Position numbers and translations under genes: made by a program
Shown: piece after piece, positions 50,336-54,140 of the stretch
Position numbering within the stretch: position 1 is the stretch's first letter
How the letters are laid out: each line of letters starts with the position of its first letter
The notes under the pieces: model-generated
Databases searched by the model: none
Told to the model about the DNA's origin: nothing
What the model saw: only the letters and a program-made list of their open reading frames with translations
From: Escherichia coli
Lineage (GTDB): Bacteria; Pseudomonadota; Gammaproteobacteria; Enterobacterales; Enterobacteriaceae
Strand: one strand, 5' to 3'
DNA: 64,000 nucleotides
Assembly (NCBI RefSeq): GCF_011045215.1
Contig: NZ_CP049201.1

Positions 50336-50908
50336 GTATGAAATCCTTGTAATGTGAATAAATGAGAGGGAGTAAAGGTCGGGAGCTGGCAACATCACGT
50401 TCATCACTGACCGTGATGACCCGGTAATATCAGGGATGAATGATATTCGGCTGAAATTCCGGACAGCCGTACGCGTAACCGTTCCGGTCACAGACGGATG
50501 GCCAGATGCCATTGCCTGTATACTCAGTCTGCACAGACTGATTTCTCCGGGACGGTAAATCAGACGGGTACACCAGGCGCACAGGTCATCATCAGAAATG
50601 GAACGACACCCCGGCAGCGCCTCCGGGGCGTCGGGTGATTCTGGTGCCTGAATCACGCCTTCAGGGACATGCTGCATCAGCGCAGGCTCTCCAGCAGCGT
50701 TTCTGCCTGCAAAATGGCATCTGAATCGATCGCAGTTTGGCATTCGAATCGATCATGATTTGGCATCCATCTCCGATCACAGTTTGGCATCACAATCGAT
50801 CACGATTTGGCATACTTCCGATCATTGATTGGAATTCGCCAGTCACTCCGGGAATTAACTCTTTTCACCACAGTCTCCATTGCCGTGTTTAAACCAGTGG
50901 AGACGTCA

Positions 50909-52474
50909 ATGTCCAAAAAGAGAAAATCCAGGAGCACTATGGAAACTTGTTTTAAGATCCTTCAGCTCAAGTTCGATAAGAAGCTGACTAACCGTTGTAT
51001 CGGACTGACGTTACACATCAGCGCCTCAACCGTTTTTGAGGTTCTTGCCCGCTTCAAAGCCTCTTCTCTGTCATGGCCATTACCTGCTGATATATCCCAT
51101 GACACGCTGGAGAAACTCATTTTCCCGCCCAAAGACACCTCTGCGTCAGAGCTTGTTATGCCTGACATGCTGTACTTCGATACGGAAATGAGAAAACCTG
51201 GCGTGACGCGCCAACTGTTGTGGATGGAATACAAGGCACAGGCGGGTGACAAAGCGATGGGATACTCACACTTCTGCCGTTGCTACCGGAAGTGGAAAAA
51301 AACGCGACGCCTCTCCATGCGACAGGAGCATCGTGCTGGCGAAAAGCTCTTTATCGACTTCTGTGGTCCTACGGTCCCTGTTATTAATCCGGACACCGGA
51401 GAGATACGCCGCGTGGCAATCTTCGTGGCTGTAATGGGGGCGTCCAACTATACCTATGTTGAAGCGTGCGAAGGTCAGGACATGATGTCATGGTTAAATG
51501 CCCACAGCCGTTGCCTGACCTTCCTGGGCGGCGTACCGAAGCTGCTCATCCCCGATAACCTCAGAAGCGCAGTGAAAAAAGCCGATCGCTATGAGCCTGT
51601 CATCAACGACAGTTATCAGGCGCTGGCTGAGCACTATGGCACGGTTATTATCCCGGCCCGCCCGCGCAAACCTAAAGATAAACCAAAAGCAGAAAACGGC
51701 GTCCTCATCGTCGAGCGATGGCTTCTTGCCCGCATCCGTAATGAAACCTTCCACACGCTCAGGGCGCTGAATGCACGCCTTCGGGAGTTGCTGACGGACA
51801 TGAATAACCGACCAATGAAGGGATACGGTAATCAAACCCGCGCAGAACGCTTCCGCATGCTGGATGCACCAGCACTCTCTCCGCTGCCTCTGGAGCCTTA
51901 TGAATACACGGAATACAAAGCCGTGAAGGTTGGCCCTGACTACCACGTTGAATATGCCCGTCACTGGTACTCCGTTCCACACGAACTGGTCGGTCAGCGT
52001 CTGTCACTGAAGGTGGGGCAGTCGGTGGTACAGCTCTGGCACAAGGGGCAGTGTGTGGCGCAACATCCGCGCAGCACACATGAATATAAACACACAACCA
52101 ATCCGCTTCACATGCCAGAACGCCACCGGCGGCATGGGACATGGACACCGGAACGCCTTATCGAGCAGGGAAACCGTACAGGTCCGTCCACAGGCCGGGT
52201 GGTTGAATCCATGCTGAAAGCCAAACCCCATCCGGAGCTGGCTTACCGTGCAGTCCTGGGTCTGCTGGCACTTCAGAAAAAATACGGCCCGGAACGGCTG
52301 GAAAAGGCCTGTTACGTTGCCCTGCACTATAACGCCCCGGACAGACGCTTTATCGACAATCTGCTGCGTCATCATCGGGATAACGTTGAGCTTCCGTTAT
52401 CCCGCCAGGGCGAACAACATCCGGCATATGCTTCAGAGCATGAAAACCTGCGTGGTCCTGGCTACTACCACTGA
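50909..52474 (+). CDS. istA: IS21-family transposase IstA, 521 aa
   Basis: ORF 50807..52474; start at ATG 50909 after GGAG; HTH N-terminus, DDE core. Confidence 0.8.
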   Translation: MSKKRKSRSTMETCFKILQLKFDKKLTNRCIGLTLHISASTVFEVLARFKASSLSWPLPADISHDTLEKLIFPPKDTSASELVMPDMLYFDTEMRKPGVTRQLLWMEYKAQAGDKAMGYSHFCRCYRKWKKTRRLSMRQEHRAGEKLFIDFCGPTVPVINPDTGEIRRVAIFVAVMGASNYTYVEACEGQDMMSWLNAHSRCLTFLGGVPKLLIPDNLRSAVKKADRYEPVINDSYQALAEHYGTVIIPARPRKPKDKPKAENGVLIVERWLLARIRNETFHTLRALNARLRELLTDMNNRPMKGYGNQTRAERFRMLDAPALSPLPLEPYEYTEYKAVKVGPDYHVEYARHWYSVPHELVGQRLSLKVGQSVVQLWHKGQCVAQHPRSTHEYKHTTNPLHMPERHRRHGTWTPERLIEQGNRTGPSTGRVVESMLKAKPHPELAYRAVLGLLALQKKYGPERLEKACYVALHYNAPDRRFIDNLLRHHRDNVELPLSRQGEQHPAYASEHENLRGPGYYH

Positions 52475-52490
52475 CAGAAGGAACAACCGT

Positions 52491-53246
52491 ATGAGTGATA
52501 ATCTGTTAAACAAACTGACCCAACTGAAACTCCCGGCGATGGCCGGGAGCCTGATACGGCAACGGGAAACGCCTCAGACTTACGACGAACTGTCGTTCGA
52601 GGAAAGGCTGACACTGCTGGTTGATGACGAGCTTCTGAGCAGAGAAAACAGTCGTGTGGCACGGTTGAGAAAAAATGCCTGCCTGAAATATCAGGCAACA
52701 CCGGAAGGGCTGCGTTATCCGGCCTCAAGAGGTCTGCGGGCTGAACAGATGAGGGAACTGCTGAACGGCCACTACATAATCCACAGGAAAAACCTACTGA
52801 TAACCGGTCCGACAGGATGCGGTAAGAGCTGGATAGCCAATGCGCTGGGCGAACAGGCATGTCGACAGAAATACAGCGTCCGGTACTGTAGAACCGGGCG
52901 ATTACTGGAACAGTTGGCTCAGGGACGTGTTGATGGCAGTTGGCTGAAATATCTGAAACAGTTGCAAAAAATACAGGTTCTAATCCTGGACGATCTGGGG
53001 CTGGAACAGTTAAGTAACGCCCAGTGTAATGACCTTCTGGAGATCACAGAGGATCGTTACGGACAAAGCAGCACGATAGTGGTAAGCCAGTTCCCGGTAG
53101 ATAAATGGCATGGTCTGATGGAGAACCCAACAACAGCAGATGCCATCCTGGACAGACTGGTACATAACTCACACAGAGTGGTCCTTCAGGGAGAGTCCCT
53201 GAGGAAAAATCCCCCGACAGTGGAAAGCAGCGAAAAAACGAGTTAA
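52491..53246 (+). CDS. istB: IS21-family IstB ATPase, 251 aa
   Basis: ORF 52248..53246; start at MSDNLLNKLTQLKLPAMAG; Walker A GPTGCGKSW. Confidence 0.85.
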   Translation: MSDNLLNKLTQLKLPAMAGSLIRQRETPQTYDELSFEERLTLLVDDELLSRENSRVARLRKNACLKYQATPEGLRYPASRGLRAEQMRELLNGHYIIHRKNLLITGPTGCGKSWIANALGEQACRQKYSVRYCRTGRLLEQLAQGRVDGSWLKYLKQLQKIQVLILDDLGLEQLSNAQCNDLLEITEDRYGQSSTIVVSQFPVDKWHGLMENPTTADAILDRLVHNSHRVVLQGESLRKNPPTVESSEKTS

Positions 53247-54140
53247 AAAGCGGTAGAAAAAGTTAAGTTCCCGGTTGATCGAATGGATGCGAATCGCTGA
53301 TCGAACTTCGATGCCAATCCGTGATCGAATAGAGCGGAATACGCATTCTGCCATTACCCACAATGCGCGGTTGAGCTTAATATCGGTGTCGATGTTGTGA
53401 ATGGCACGGGTGTGGATACGTTTTCCTTTTGCACTGCGGCCGGAAATCCCGCCTTTCAGCATATTCTCCTGGATGGTCTGATAAGTACTCCACAGGTCCT
53501 TACCGTAATCCTCCCGGCGTCGTGGCGTCAGAATGTCGGCGGTGGTGACGGGCCGATGTTCGTCACCATAACGGTAAGTCAGTGCCGCCTGTGCCAGCGC
53601 CTGGCGTGCCGGTGGCGGCAGGACCAGCGACTGCATGGCATCACGCTTCTCCTCTATCCGGTCAAACACGCCCACCACCTCGTAAGCCCCTTCAATGACT
53701 CTGTCCACCACATTTCCCCGATGCGGAACACGCACTTCCCCCAGAGACTGACCACAGACGCATCCGTTCTGACAGACGAACCTGAAGTAACCCGGCAGCA
53801 TCTGGTAGCTGGAGGTACCGTCATGGGAGTTGAGCAGAATGATTTCAGGGACATGTTCTCCGTTTATCTCTCCGGCCCGCCGCAGACGCAGCATGTGTTT
53901 TGTGTATCCCCGGCGGCCCGGGTCGCGCACACGGGTCTGGCAGGCGAAGAATGGCTGAAAGCCTTCCCGCTGCAGGCTTTCCAGTACGGTGATGGTGGGG
54001 ATGTACGTATAGTTCTGGCTTCGGGACGTGTGTTTCTCTTCCCCGAAAATCCCCGGCACATAGTGCATCAGTTCTTCGTGTGTCAGCGGACGGTCACGGC
54101 GTATCTGGTTCGCATAACCAAAACGACTGGCTAGTCGCAT
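53169..54140 (-). pseudogene. DUF932 (YafZ/YfjQ-family) gene with 3' end replaced by IS21-family terminal sequence
   Basis: ORF 53169..54140; first about 260 codons look like YafZ family (MRLASRFG...KLNRAL); after about 53356 the reading frame runs into the IS end and continues as unrelated sequence. Confidence 0.7.

Follow-up and report, generated by a model that had tools for sequence, protein, structure and literature searches.

Probable simple insertion of an ISSso4-type IS21-family element at the 3′ end of a DUF932 gene in a putative CP4-44-type island of Escherichia coli

IS21 of plasmid R68.45 is the prototype of the IS21 family of insertion sequences (IS). It encodes istA followed by istB, has TG...CA termini and repeated subterminal motifs at both ends, and is flanked by a short target site duplication (TSD), which is 4–5 bp for IS21 itself and 7 bp for the element described here. 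Another member of the family, ISSso4, was named from Shigella sonnei and is catalogued in ISfinder. ISSso4 is among the IS listed for S. sonnei (PMC7373316; bioRxiv 10.64898/2026.03.18.712784). A full-text literature search for ISSso4 and DUF932 retrieved mentions in lists and annotations only, and nothing on target choice or on the function of DUF932.

We analyzed a 64-kb stretch of an E. coli-type chromosome, hereafter the window, which carries one complete IS21-family element. Its boundaries were set by comparison with the empty site in other genomes, and its features are as follows:

50708–53345, + strand: complete ISSso4-type IS (IS21 family), 2,638 bp, termini 5′-TG...CA-3′
50708–50835, + strand: left IS end, the terminus and five direct copies of a 17-nt motif at 22–24-nt spacing (repeat search, motif scan)
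50939–52474, + strand: istA, IS21-family transposase, 511 aa (NCBIfam NF033546, Pfam domains)
52491–53246, + strand: istB, AAA+ helper ATPase, 251 aa (NCBIfam NF038214, Pfam IstB_IS21)
53287–53345, − strand: right IS end, two inverted copies of the 17-nt motif (repeat search, motif scan, alignment of left and right ends)
50701–50707, no strand: left TSD copy, TTCTGCC, 7 bp (read from the sequence)
53346–53352, no strand: right TSD copy, TTCTGCC, 7 bp (read from the sequence)

By sequence, the element is the known ISSso4 of the IS21 family, the name being that given by NCBI PGAP annotation to identical copies. Across its 2,638 nt it is 100% identical to the E. coli copies in CP038859 and CP076270, and it is 99.9% identical to those in CP145141 and AP042478, all four of which are annotated as 'IS21-like element ISSso4 family' (transposase or helper ATPase IstB). 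The sizes of istA (1,536 nt) and istB (756 nt) match those of annotated ISSso4-family copies elsewhere. IstA scores 287.4 bits against NCBIfam NF033546 (cut-off 160) and 70.9 bits against Pfam Mu-transpos_C_2, while its score against Pfam rve (32.2 bits) is just below the cut-off of 32.6. An in-frame ATG at 50909 would provide an alternative istA start, giving a protein of 521 aa. IstB scores 252 bits against NCBIfam NF038214 (cut-off 200) and 203 bits against Pfam IstB_IS21 (PF01695), and its translation contains Walker A (GPTGCGKS) and Walker B (LILDD) motifs. The two genes lie on the same (+) strand, 16 nt apart.

Both ends of the element display the terminal features of the IS21 family, namely TG...CA and imperfect inverted repeats with repeated motifs. 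The left terminus starts with TGCAAAATGG and the right one closes with GAATACGCA. The 17-nt motif, CGATCNNNRTTTGGCAT, is present in five copies at the left end and in two inverted copies at the right end. These seven matches, all inside the IS ends, are the only ones in 64 kb, against 1.4 expected, and none of 100 shuffled sequences reached seven. The repeated motifs previously noted at the IS ends are therefore present and, as found here, confined to them; they are presumed to be IstA binding sites. Scanning for the same motif detected no second ISSso4 copy in the 64-kb window, and a consensus scan revealed no sigma-70-like outward promoter directed toward the neighboring antirestriction gene in or near the IS ends.

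The element interrupts a YafZ-like DUF932 gene near its 3′ end. The following features of the host locus are relevant:

53169–54140, − strand: 323-codon chimeric open reading frame (ORF), of which 265 codons (54140 down to 53346) are native to DUF932 and 58 run through the right IS end
50677–50700, − strand: codons 266–272 (TLLESLR) and stop of the DUF932 gene, its native 3′ end, now displaced (translation of the empty site)
50604–50633, − strand: terminator-like GC-rich hairpin with a T-rich tail (consensus scan; predicted function)
49862–50335, − strand: antirestriction gene, 157 aa, intact, the next gene of the island (Pfam Antirestrict, 125.6 bits)

The preliminary description had placed an IS21-family element in this gene and proposed a chimeric frame extending to 53169, which is borne out by alignment of the encoded protein with an exact intact homologue, with E. 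coli MB20 and with YafZ and YfjQ of K-12. These alignments locate the breakpoint directly after E265, and the counts are 265 and 58 codons instead of the proposed figures of about 260 and about 60. Alignment with intact homologues does not extend over the full length of the 323-aa ORF, since the last seven residues, TLLESLR (pattern …WVMAETLLxxLx), have been lost and replaced by 58 IS-encoded ones, and the final 78 nt of the ORF overlap the istB 3′ end in antisense. The protein reconstructed for the empty site has 272 aa, ends in WVMAETLLESLR directly before the stop and is identical to WP_063121790.1. Despite the insertion, the predicted protein retains the complete Pfam DUF932 domain (PF06067; 176.9 bits, cut-off 23; residues 36–261, profile positions 1–227 of 227). 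Some 45 nt separate the native DUF932 stop from the predicted hairpin downstream, from which the gene is now cut off by the IS.

No target duplication had been recognized previously. This proved to be wrong: TTCTGCC forms a perfect 7-bp direct repeat adjoining both IS termini, and it is present in a single copy at the empty site in other genomes. Excision in silico of the IS together with one copy of the repeat yields a 302-nt sequence matching many complete E. coli genomes at 100% identity. In a search with the empty site, the best match was at least 99% identical in 1003 records, and query coverage was at least 80% in 2,583 genomes. Collinearity with the corresponding locus of strain MB20 extends to both sides of the IS, positions 47584–50707 and 53346–54600 of the window corresponding to 4884–8007 and 8001–9256 of the latter, respectively, and the two MB20 segments overlap by exactly 7 bases. 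The length of the duplication falls within the range of other ISSso4-type copies (4–7 bp): it is 5–7 bp in eight other E. coli copies examined, and among 16 metagenomic ISSso4 copies for which both flanks were available, 10 have a TSD of 4–7 bp, mostly 6–7 bp.

The host locus is probably a CP4-44-type genomic island. The gene order expected of these islands, GTPase – Ag43 – DUF905 – DUF932 – antirestriction – RadC/JAB – DUF987 – CbeA – CbtA, and the location, with yeeA on one side and cobUST on the other, match those of three other E. coli loci (L001, L002 and L006, the last from MB20), except for the Ag43 gene, which is absent from the window owing to a 2,820-bp deletion. The antirestriction gene of the window has 474 nt, the size annotated in L001 and L006. 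In empty-site genomes (strains 504838 and MB20), a gene-free spacer of 341 bp separates the DUF932 gene from the antirestriction gene downstream.

Taken together, these data indicate a clean, simple insertion of a known element without any loss of island DNA, a reading that none of the results contradicts and to which we assign a probability of roughly 95%; the occupied allele itself is represented by one assembly. On this reading, an ISSso4 copy entered the DUF932 gene within its last eight codons by simple insertion. According to what is known of the IS21 family, the IstA transposase, assisted by the IstB ATPase, would have made a 7-bp staggered cut in the target, and repair of the stagger would have produced the TTCTGCC duplication. 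The intactness of the IS, the perfect duplication and the 100% identity to other copies suggest that the insertion is recent. From the same properties, and from the intact genes and ends, we infer that the window copy may be active in transposition.

The alternative that survives best concerns the choice of the site rather than the insertion itself. It holds that the insertion was non-random and that ISSso4-type elements have a local hot spot comprising the terminal ~100 bp of DUF932 genes and the downstream spacer in E. coli CP4-type islands. We consider this possible but unlikely. In its favor, five more independent ISSso4-type insertions were found in the same module of other complete E. 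coli genomes (six including the window). Two of them (L002 and L012) share their insertion nucleotide, face opposite ways and have the TSDs GATAC and GGATAC, two (L009 and L010) are in the spacer, and one (L011) is between radC and DUF987. However, a metagenome census, comprising 92 loci with the ISSso4 right end in contigs that tend to break at repeats, provided ~58 distinct sites, none of them within a DUF932 3′ end or the antirestriction spacer; one insertion is 579 nt upstream of a DUF932 gene. Alignment of nine E. coli target sites revealed no common motif. Attraction of the element to sequences resembling its own ends was also considered and rejected: with a weight matrix derived from the seven 17-nt end repeats, the 80 nt beside insertion sites did not score higher than distant flank windows (Mann–Whitney p = 0.64), and the score of the DUF932 3′ region (2.2 bits) is unremarkable. 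Moreover, four of the five genomes are rich in ISSso4-type matches (7, 7, 14 and 34 places per record; the fifth has 2), and the module represents multi-copy, non-essential DNA. Because of the abundance of ISSso4 in these genomes, the nature of the module and the null results of the census and motif tests, chance combined with tolerance is a plausible explanation for the insertions in the module. If the hot spot is nevertheless real, IstB-mediated target capture might respond to a DNA-structural or protein-bound feature of the region; in this respect, the recurrent insertions offer a small lead on target choice in the IS21 family, a poorly understood matter. As a separate observation, many metagenomic right flanks (13 of 60) begin with GT.

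The insertion allele appears to be strain-specific. A 601-nt query spanning the occupied junction found no match with at least 80% coverage among 5,426 complete E. coli genomes, an exact 38-nt junction pattern had no occurrence in GTDB species representatives, and none of the ~58 distinct metagenomic ISSso4 flanks corresponds to the junction. The exact chimeric protein is likewise absent from a collection of 15 billion proteins and from the gene-position index. If so restricted, the allele could act as a lineage marker. These results also bear on the idea that the 323-aa protein is a functional fusion maintained by selection, in which the IS supplies a new C-terminal tail. Although the full DUF932 domain is kept and the frame stays open for 58 further codons, the tail is simply the antisense of the right IS end and the istB 3′ end, and nothing points to spread or conservation of the chimeric protein, because neither it, among ~15 billion proteins, nor the junction, in any other searched genome, was found. 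We therefore regard a selected fusion as very improbable, and the annotation of the 323-codon ORF should be that of a DUF932 gene whose 3′ end is disrupted by ISSso4, not that of a new protein.

Still less credible is a rearrangement breakpoint, i.e. a hybrid element formed by homologous recombination between two ISSso4 copies, with flanks derived from different loci. Such events, or chimeric assemblies, do occur, as illustrated by the lack of a TSD in 6 of the 16 metagenomic copies mentioned above, and the island family is present in multiple copies per genome (median 2 places, up to 10); yet both flanks share one 7-bp repeat and rebuild a single uninterrupted gene plus spacer at 100% identity, and the window is devoid of a second ISSso4 copy. 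Finally, an insertion followed by an adjacent deletion that removed ykfF/ykfB/yafY-type genes beside the antirestriction gene, as hinted at in the preliminary description, has next to no probability: K-12 CP4-6 and CP4-57 do have several small genes (ykfF/ykfB/yafY) between yafZ or yfjQ and the antirestriction gene, and we confirmed that the window has no ykfF/yafY-type gene there, but the deletion is ruled out by the perfect TSD at the IS termini, the flanks that are contiguous and 100% identical in many IS-free genomes, the gene-free 341-bp spacer of the latter, and the collinearity with MB20 with its 7-base overlap. The gene-order comparison with CP4-6 and CP4-57 indicates that ykfF/ykfB/yafY belong to those differently organised islands, and the absence of ykfF/yafY is a trait of the CP4-44-type island rather than a deletion, because empty-site genomes also lack these genes. 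Accordingly, an IS-mediated deletion should not form part of the island's description.

The simple insertion can be compared with described systems. With respect to IS21 of R68.45, the window element has the gene order, termini, subterminal motifs and short TSD in common, but its IstA is longer and includes a Mu-transposase-C-like domain, and the window lacks a tandem (IS21)2-type junction. From ISSso4 it differs only in the insertion site, the sizes of istA and istB, the termini and the TSD range being alike. In this sense, it is an ordinary insertion of an already known element, with implications mostly for annotation.

The DUF932 protein is 74% and 72% identical to K-12 YafZ (CP4-6) and YfjQ (CP4-57), respectively, and aligns with them end to end up to residue 265, the C-terminal motif LNRALWVMAE being conserved. 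The neighborhoods are also similar, with a GTPase gene upstream and antirestriction, RadC-like, DUF987 and CbeA/CbtA genes downstream, whereas the CP4-44-type variant of the window is distinguished by the succession of DUF932, 341-bp spacer and antirestriction gene and by the IS-derived tail. Close parallels are found in avian pathogenic E. coli (APEC) E956 (CP087294) and isolate 2-101 (CP053785), where the same type of IS, at 96% identity, interrupts a DUF932 paralogue near its 3′ end; the severed 3′ fragments, 96 and 102 nt long, carry pseudogene annotations. Their insertion site is ~70 nt further upstream in the gene, the TSDs are 5 and 6 bp, and one of the two elements is in the opposite orientation; these two insertions and that in the window are independent events.

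On its minus strand, at ~47.8-56 kb, the window carries a module usual for E. coli CP4-type islands, with the following genes in order of transcription:

54913-55848, minus strand: GTPase gene, first in transcription order
54298-54489, minus strand: truncated DUF905 ORF, covering only positions 2-44 of 70 of the profile
53169-54140, minus strand: DUF932 (YafZ/YfjQ-like) ORF
49862-50335, minus strand: antirestriction gene
49370-49861, minus strand: RadC/JAB gene
between the RadC/JAB gene and CbeA, minus strand: DUF987-type ORF
48555-49031, minus strand: CbeA
48091-48465, minus strand: CbtA, last in transcription order

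The DUF905 gene is annotated as frameshifted in the closest relatives, E. coli 504838 (L001) and MB20 (L006), and is thus an inherited pseudogene unconnected with the IS described below. The left part of the window is up to 98.3% identical to the E. coli chromosomal his-sbcB-dacD-plaP region, and no tRNA genes are present in the window. The same island type adjoins yeeA in APEC E956 and cobUST in MB20, which would place it at the CP4-44 position.

A plus-strand gene pair is wedged between the DUF932 ORF and the antirestriction gene. The first product (511 aa) scores 287 bits against NCBIfam NF033546 'IS21 family transposase' (cut-off 160) and the second (251 aa) 252 bits against NF038214 'IS21-like element helper ATPase IstB' (cut-off 200) and 203 bits against Pfam IstB_IS21. 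The entire element (50708-53345; 2,638 bp) matches elements of E. coli CP038859 and CP076270 at 100% identity along its full length, each of these being split by an IS4-family element; in CP145141 and AP042478 the copies are uninterrupted and 99.9% identical. All four carry the annotation 'IS21-like element ISSso4 family'. A variant ~96% identical to the window copy is widespread. Of the matches listed for complete E. coli genomes, only two are 100% identical, and both are interrupted near the left end (E. coli 357900, locus L005 3001-7137, and the corresponding site in CP076270). The two ISSso4 pieces around the IS4-family element (query 1-38 and 30-2638) share 9 bases, consistent with a 9-bp duplication.

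The terminal sequences of the window element are TGCAAAATGG at the start and GAATACGCA at the end; position 50708, proposed as its start in the preliminary description, is the exact left terminus. The repeated IS21-type motifs reported there at the IS ends were likewise recovered: the 17-nt motif CGATCNNNRTTTGGCAT occurs in five copies with 22-24-nt spacing at the left end (50727-50835) and in two inverted copies at the right end (53287-53327), and nowhere else across the 64 kb (7 matches versus 1.4 expected; 7 reached in 0 of 100 shuffles). Such multi-repeat ends are how IstA binding sites are described in the IS21 family.

The left junction reads ...CAGCAGCGT-TTCTGCC followed by TGCAAAATGG, and the right one GAATACGCA followed by TTCTGCC-ATTACCCAC..., so that the same heptamer lies directly outside both IS termini (50701-50707 and 53346-53352). 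Perfect duplications of 5-7 bp flank all eight other E. coli copies examined; among the 16 metagenomic copies for which both flanks are available, ten carry duplications of 4-7 bp, usually 6 or 7. A 7-bp duplication is typical for ISSso4. When both flanks were joined through one copy of TTCTGCC, the resulting 302-nt empty-site query was found at 100% identity and full length in E. coli genomes; 1003 records reached 99% identity or more in their best match, and in 2,583 genomes at least 80% of the query was covered. In MB20, window positions 47584-50707 correspond to L006 4884-8007 and 53346-54600 to L006 8001-9256; the two collinear blocks overlap by exactly 7 bases, the duplicated ones. The reconstructed gene encodes 272 aa ending in ...LNRALWVMAETLLESLR*, and this protein exists as an exact entry, WP_063121790.1, 'DUF932 domain-containing protein [Escherichia coli]', in the protein collection. 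Taken together, the empty-site match, the collinearity with MB20 and the protein identity show a simple insertion with flanking DNA fully kept. The preliminary description, although real in its observation and accurate in its coordinates, had found no target duplication and hence suspected an IS-mediated deletion; the heptamer abutting both termini and the contiguous flanks at the empty site refute both.

Boundaries, duplication and empty site can be read directly, as can the intact genes and ends of the IS. Mechanistically, ISSso4 most likely entered by IstA/IstB-mediated simple insertion through a 7-bp staggered target cut, with the catalytic steps inferred from what holds for the IS21 family.

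To locate the divergence point, we aligned the 323-aa ORF with its exact intact homologue, the MB20 protein, and K-12 YafZ (74% identity) and YfjQ (72%). All aligned DUF932 proteins are collinear to E265, after which 58 residues (CVFRSIRSRIGIEVRS...KDHSV) stand in place of the native heptapeptide TLLESLR. This tail is a read-through of the right IS end, its last 78 nt running antisense to the istB 3′ end. All of the Pfam DUF932 match (residues 36-261; profile positions 1-227 of 227) falls upstream of the junction. Two features lie on the far side of the IS:

50677-50700, minus strand: displaced native 3′ end (TLLESLR and stop codon)
50633-50604: terminator-like hairpin with a T-rich tail, ~45 nt downstream of the displaced native end, a consensus match only

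If the hairpin is functional, the IS would now stand between the gene and its terminator, and the genes downstream would already have been transcriptionally insulated from that gene. A 293-codon ORF (49862-50743, minus strand) that starts inside the left IS end reads without a stop across all of the 341-bp spacer, in the frame of the 157-aa antirestriction gene. In relatives this spacer has no PGAP annotation; if meaningful, the open frame might correspond to an extended antirestriction isoform or a small gene upstream.

The occupied junction was found in none of 5,426 complete E. coli genomes, GTDB species representatives or ~58 distinct metagenomic ISSso4 flanks, and the chimeric protein has no entry in a collection of 15 billion proteins. 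Given also that the duplication is perfect and the IS 100% identical to other copies, the event was probably recent and specific to this strain.

Searching complete E. coli genomes with the right IS end joined to the DUF932 3′ part, and recovering each site, revealed five further independent insertions of the ISSso4-type 96% variant in the DUF932-antirestriction-radC module:

APEC E956, L002 4102-6740: inside DUF932, ~96 nt from the stop codon; duplication GATAC
isolate 2-101, L012 2208-4846: same nucleotide as in APEC E956, opposite orientation, different island; duplication GGATAC
JNE21-003, L009 2208-4846: in the spacer, at a place different from that in GF60
GF60, L010 2208-4846: in the spacer, at a place different from that in JNE21-003
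TUM1881, L011 2208-4846: between radC and DUF987

This recurrence, and the sharing of one nucleotide position by two insertions in opposite orientations, might be taken for a real ISSso4 hot spot. However, in a census of 92 metagenomic loci with the ISSso4 right end, none of ~58 distinct sites lies in the DUF932 3′ end or spacer (one is 579 nt upstream of a DUF932 gene), aligned target sites have no common motif, and a weight matrix of the end repeat shows no enrichment beside insertion sites (p = 0.64). A hot spot is thus improbable. Chance and tolerance more likely account for the recurrence, the coincidence at one nucleotide excepted, because four of the five genomes have ISSso4-type matches at 7, 7, 14 and 34 places in the same record (the fifth, isolate 2-101, at only 2) and the module is multi-copy, dispensable DNA. 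Right flanks starting with GT, counted by eye, make up 13 of 60 distinct metagenomic flanks (L013-L104) versus ~6% by chance; this excess may reflect a weak base preference where the duplicated target begins.

The window insertion is an ordinary event: a catalogued IS, probably recently arrived, in a gene of uncharacterised function that belongs to an IS-rich island. The island edge on the yeeA side (window 45287-47588 versus L006 1-4884) is itself a patchwork of IS elements, bordered by IS100 (istA/istB ORFs on the minus strand at ~44436-46237) and by a degraded IS110-family element; MB20 has there an additional ISEc12 (~2.6 kb) that the window lacks. Between the DUF905 ORF and the GTPase gene (~54593-54600), 2,820 bp are missing relative to the closest E. 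coli islands (e.g. MB20, L006 9257-12076), namely nearly the entire Ag43/flu autotransporter gene except its final ~78 nt. This is the true deletion of the window island, not adjacent to the IS, and its junction inside a short imperfect repeat, ATA(A)CCGGC, suggests a microhomology-mediated event.

The preliminary description rightly noted that ykfF/yafY-type small genes are absent, but IS-mediated deletion does not explain it, as the empty-site strains 504838 and MB20 lack them too. Both have the order GTPase, Ag43, DUF905 (frameshifted), DUF932 (819 nt), a 341-bp gap, antirestriction (474 nt), JAB, DUF987, YeeU-type antitoxin, CbtA and DUF5983. Since their gap holds no annotated genes and the window copy of it is complete, the absence is older than the insertion and unrelated to the IS. 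In K-12, by contrast, CP4-6 has ykfK, ykfL, yafY, ykfB and ykfF between yafZ and yafX, and in CP4-57 the insert separating yfjQ from the antirestriction gene is longer still; the window island is a different variant from both.
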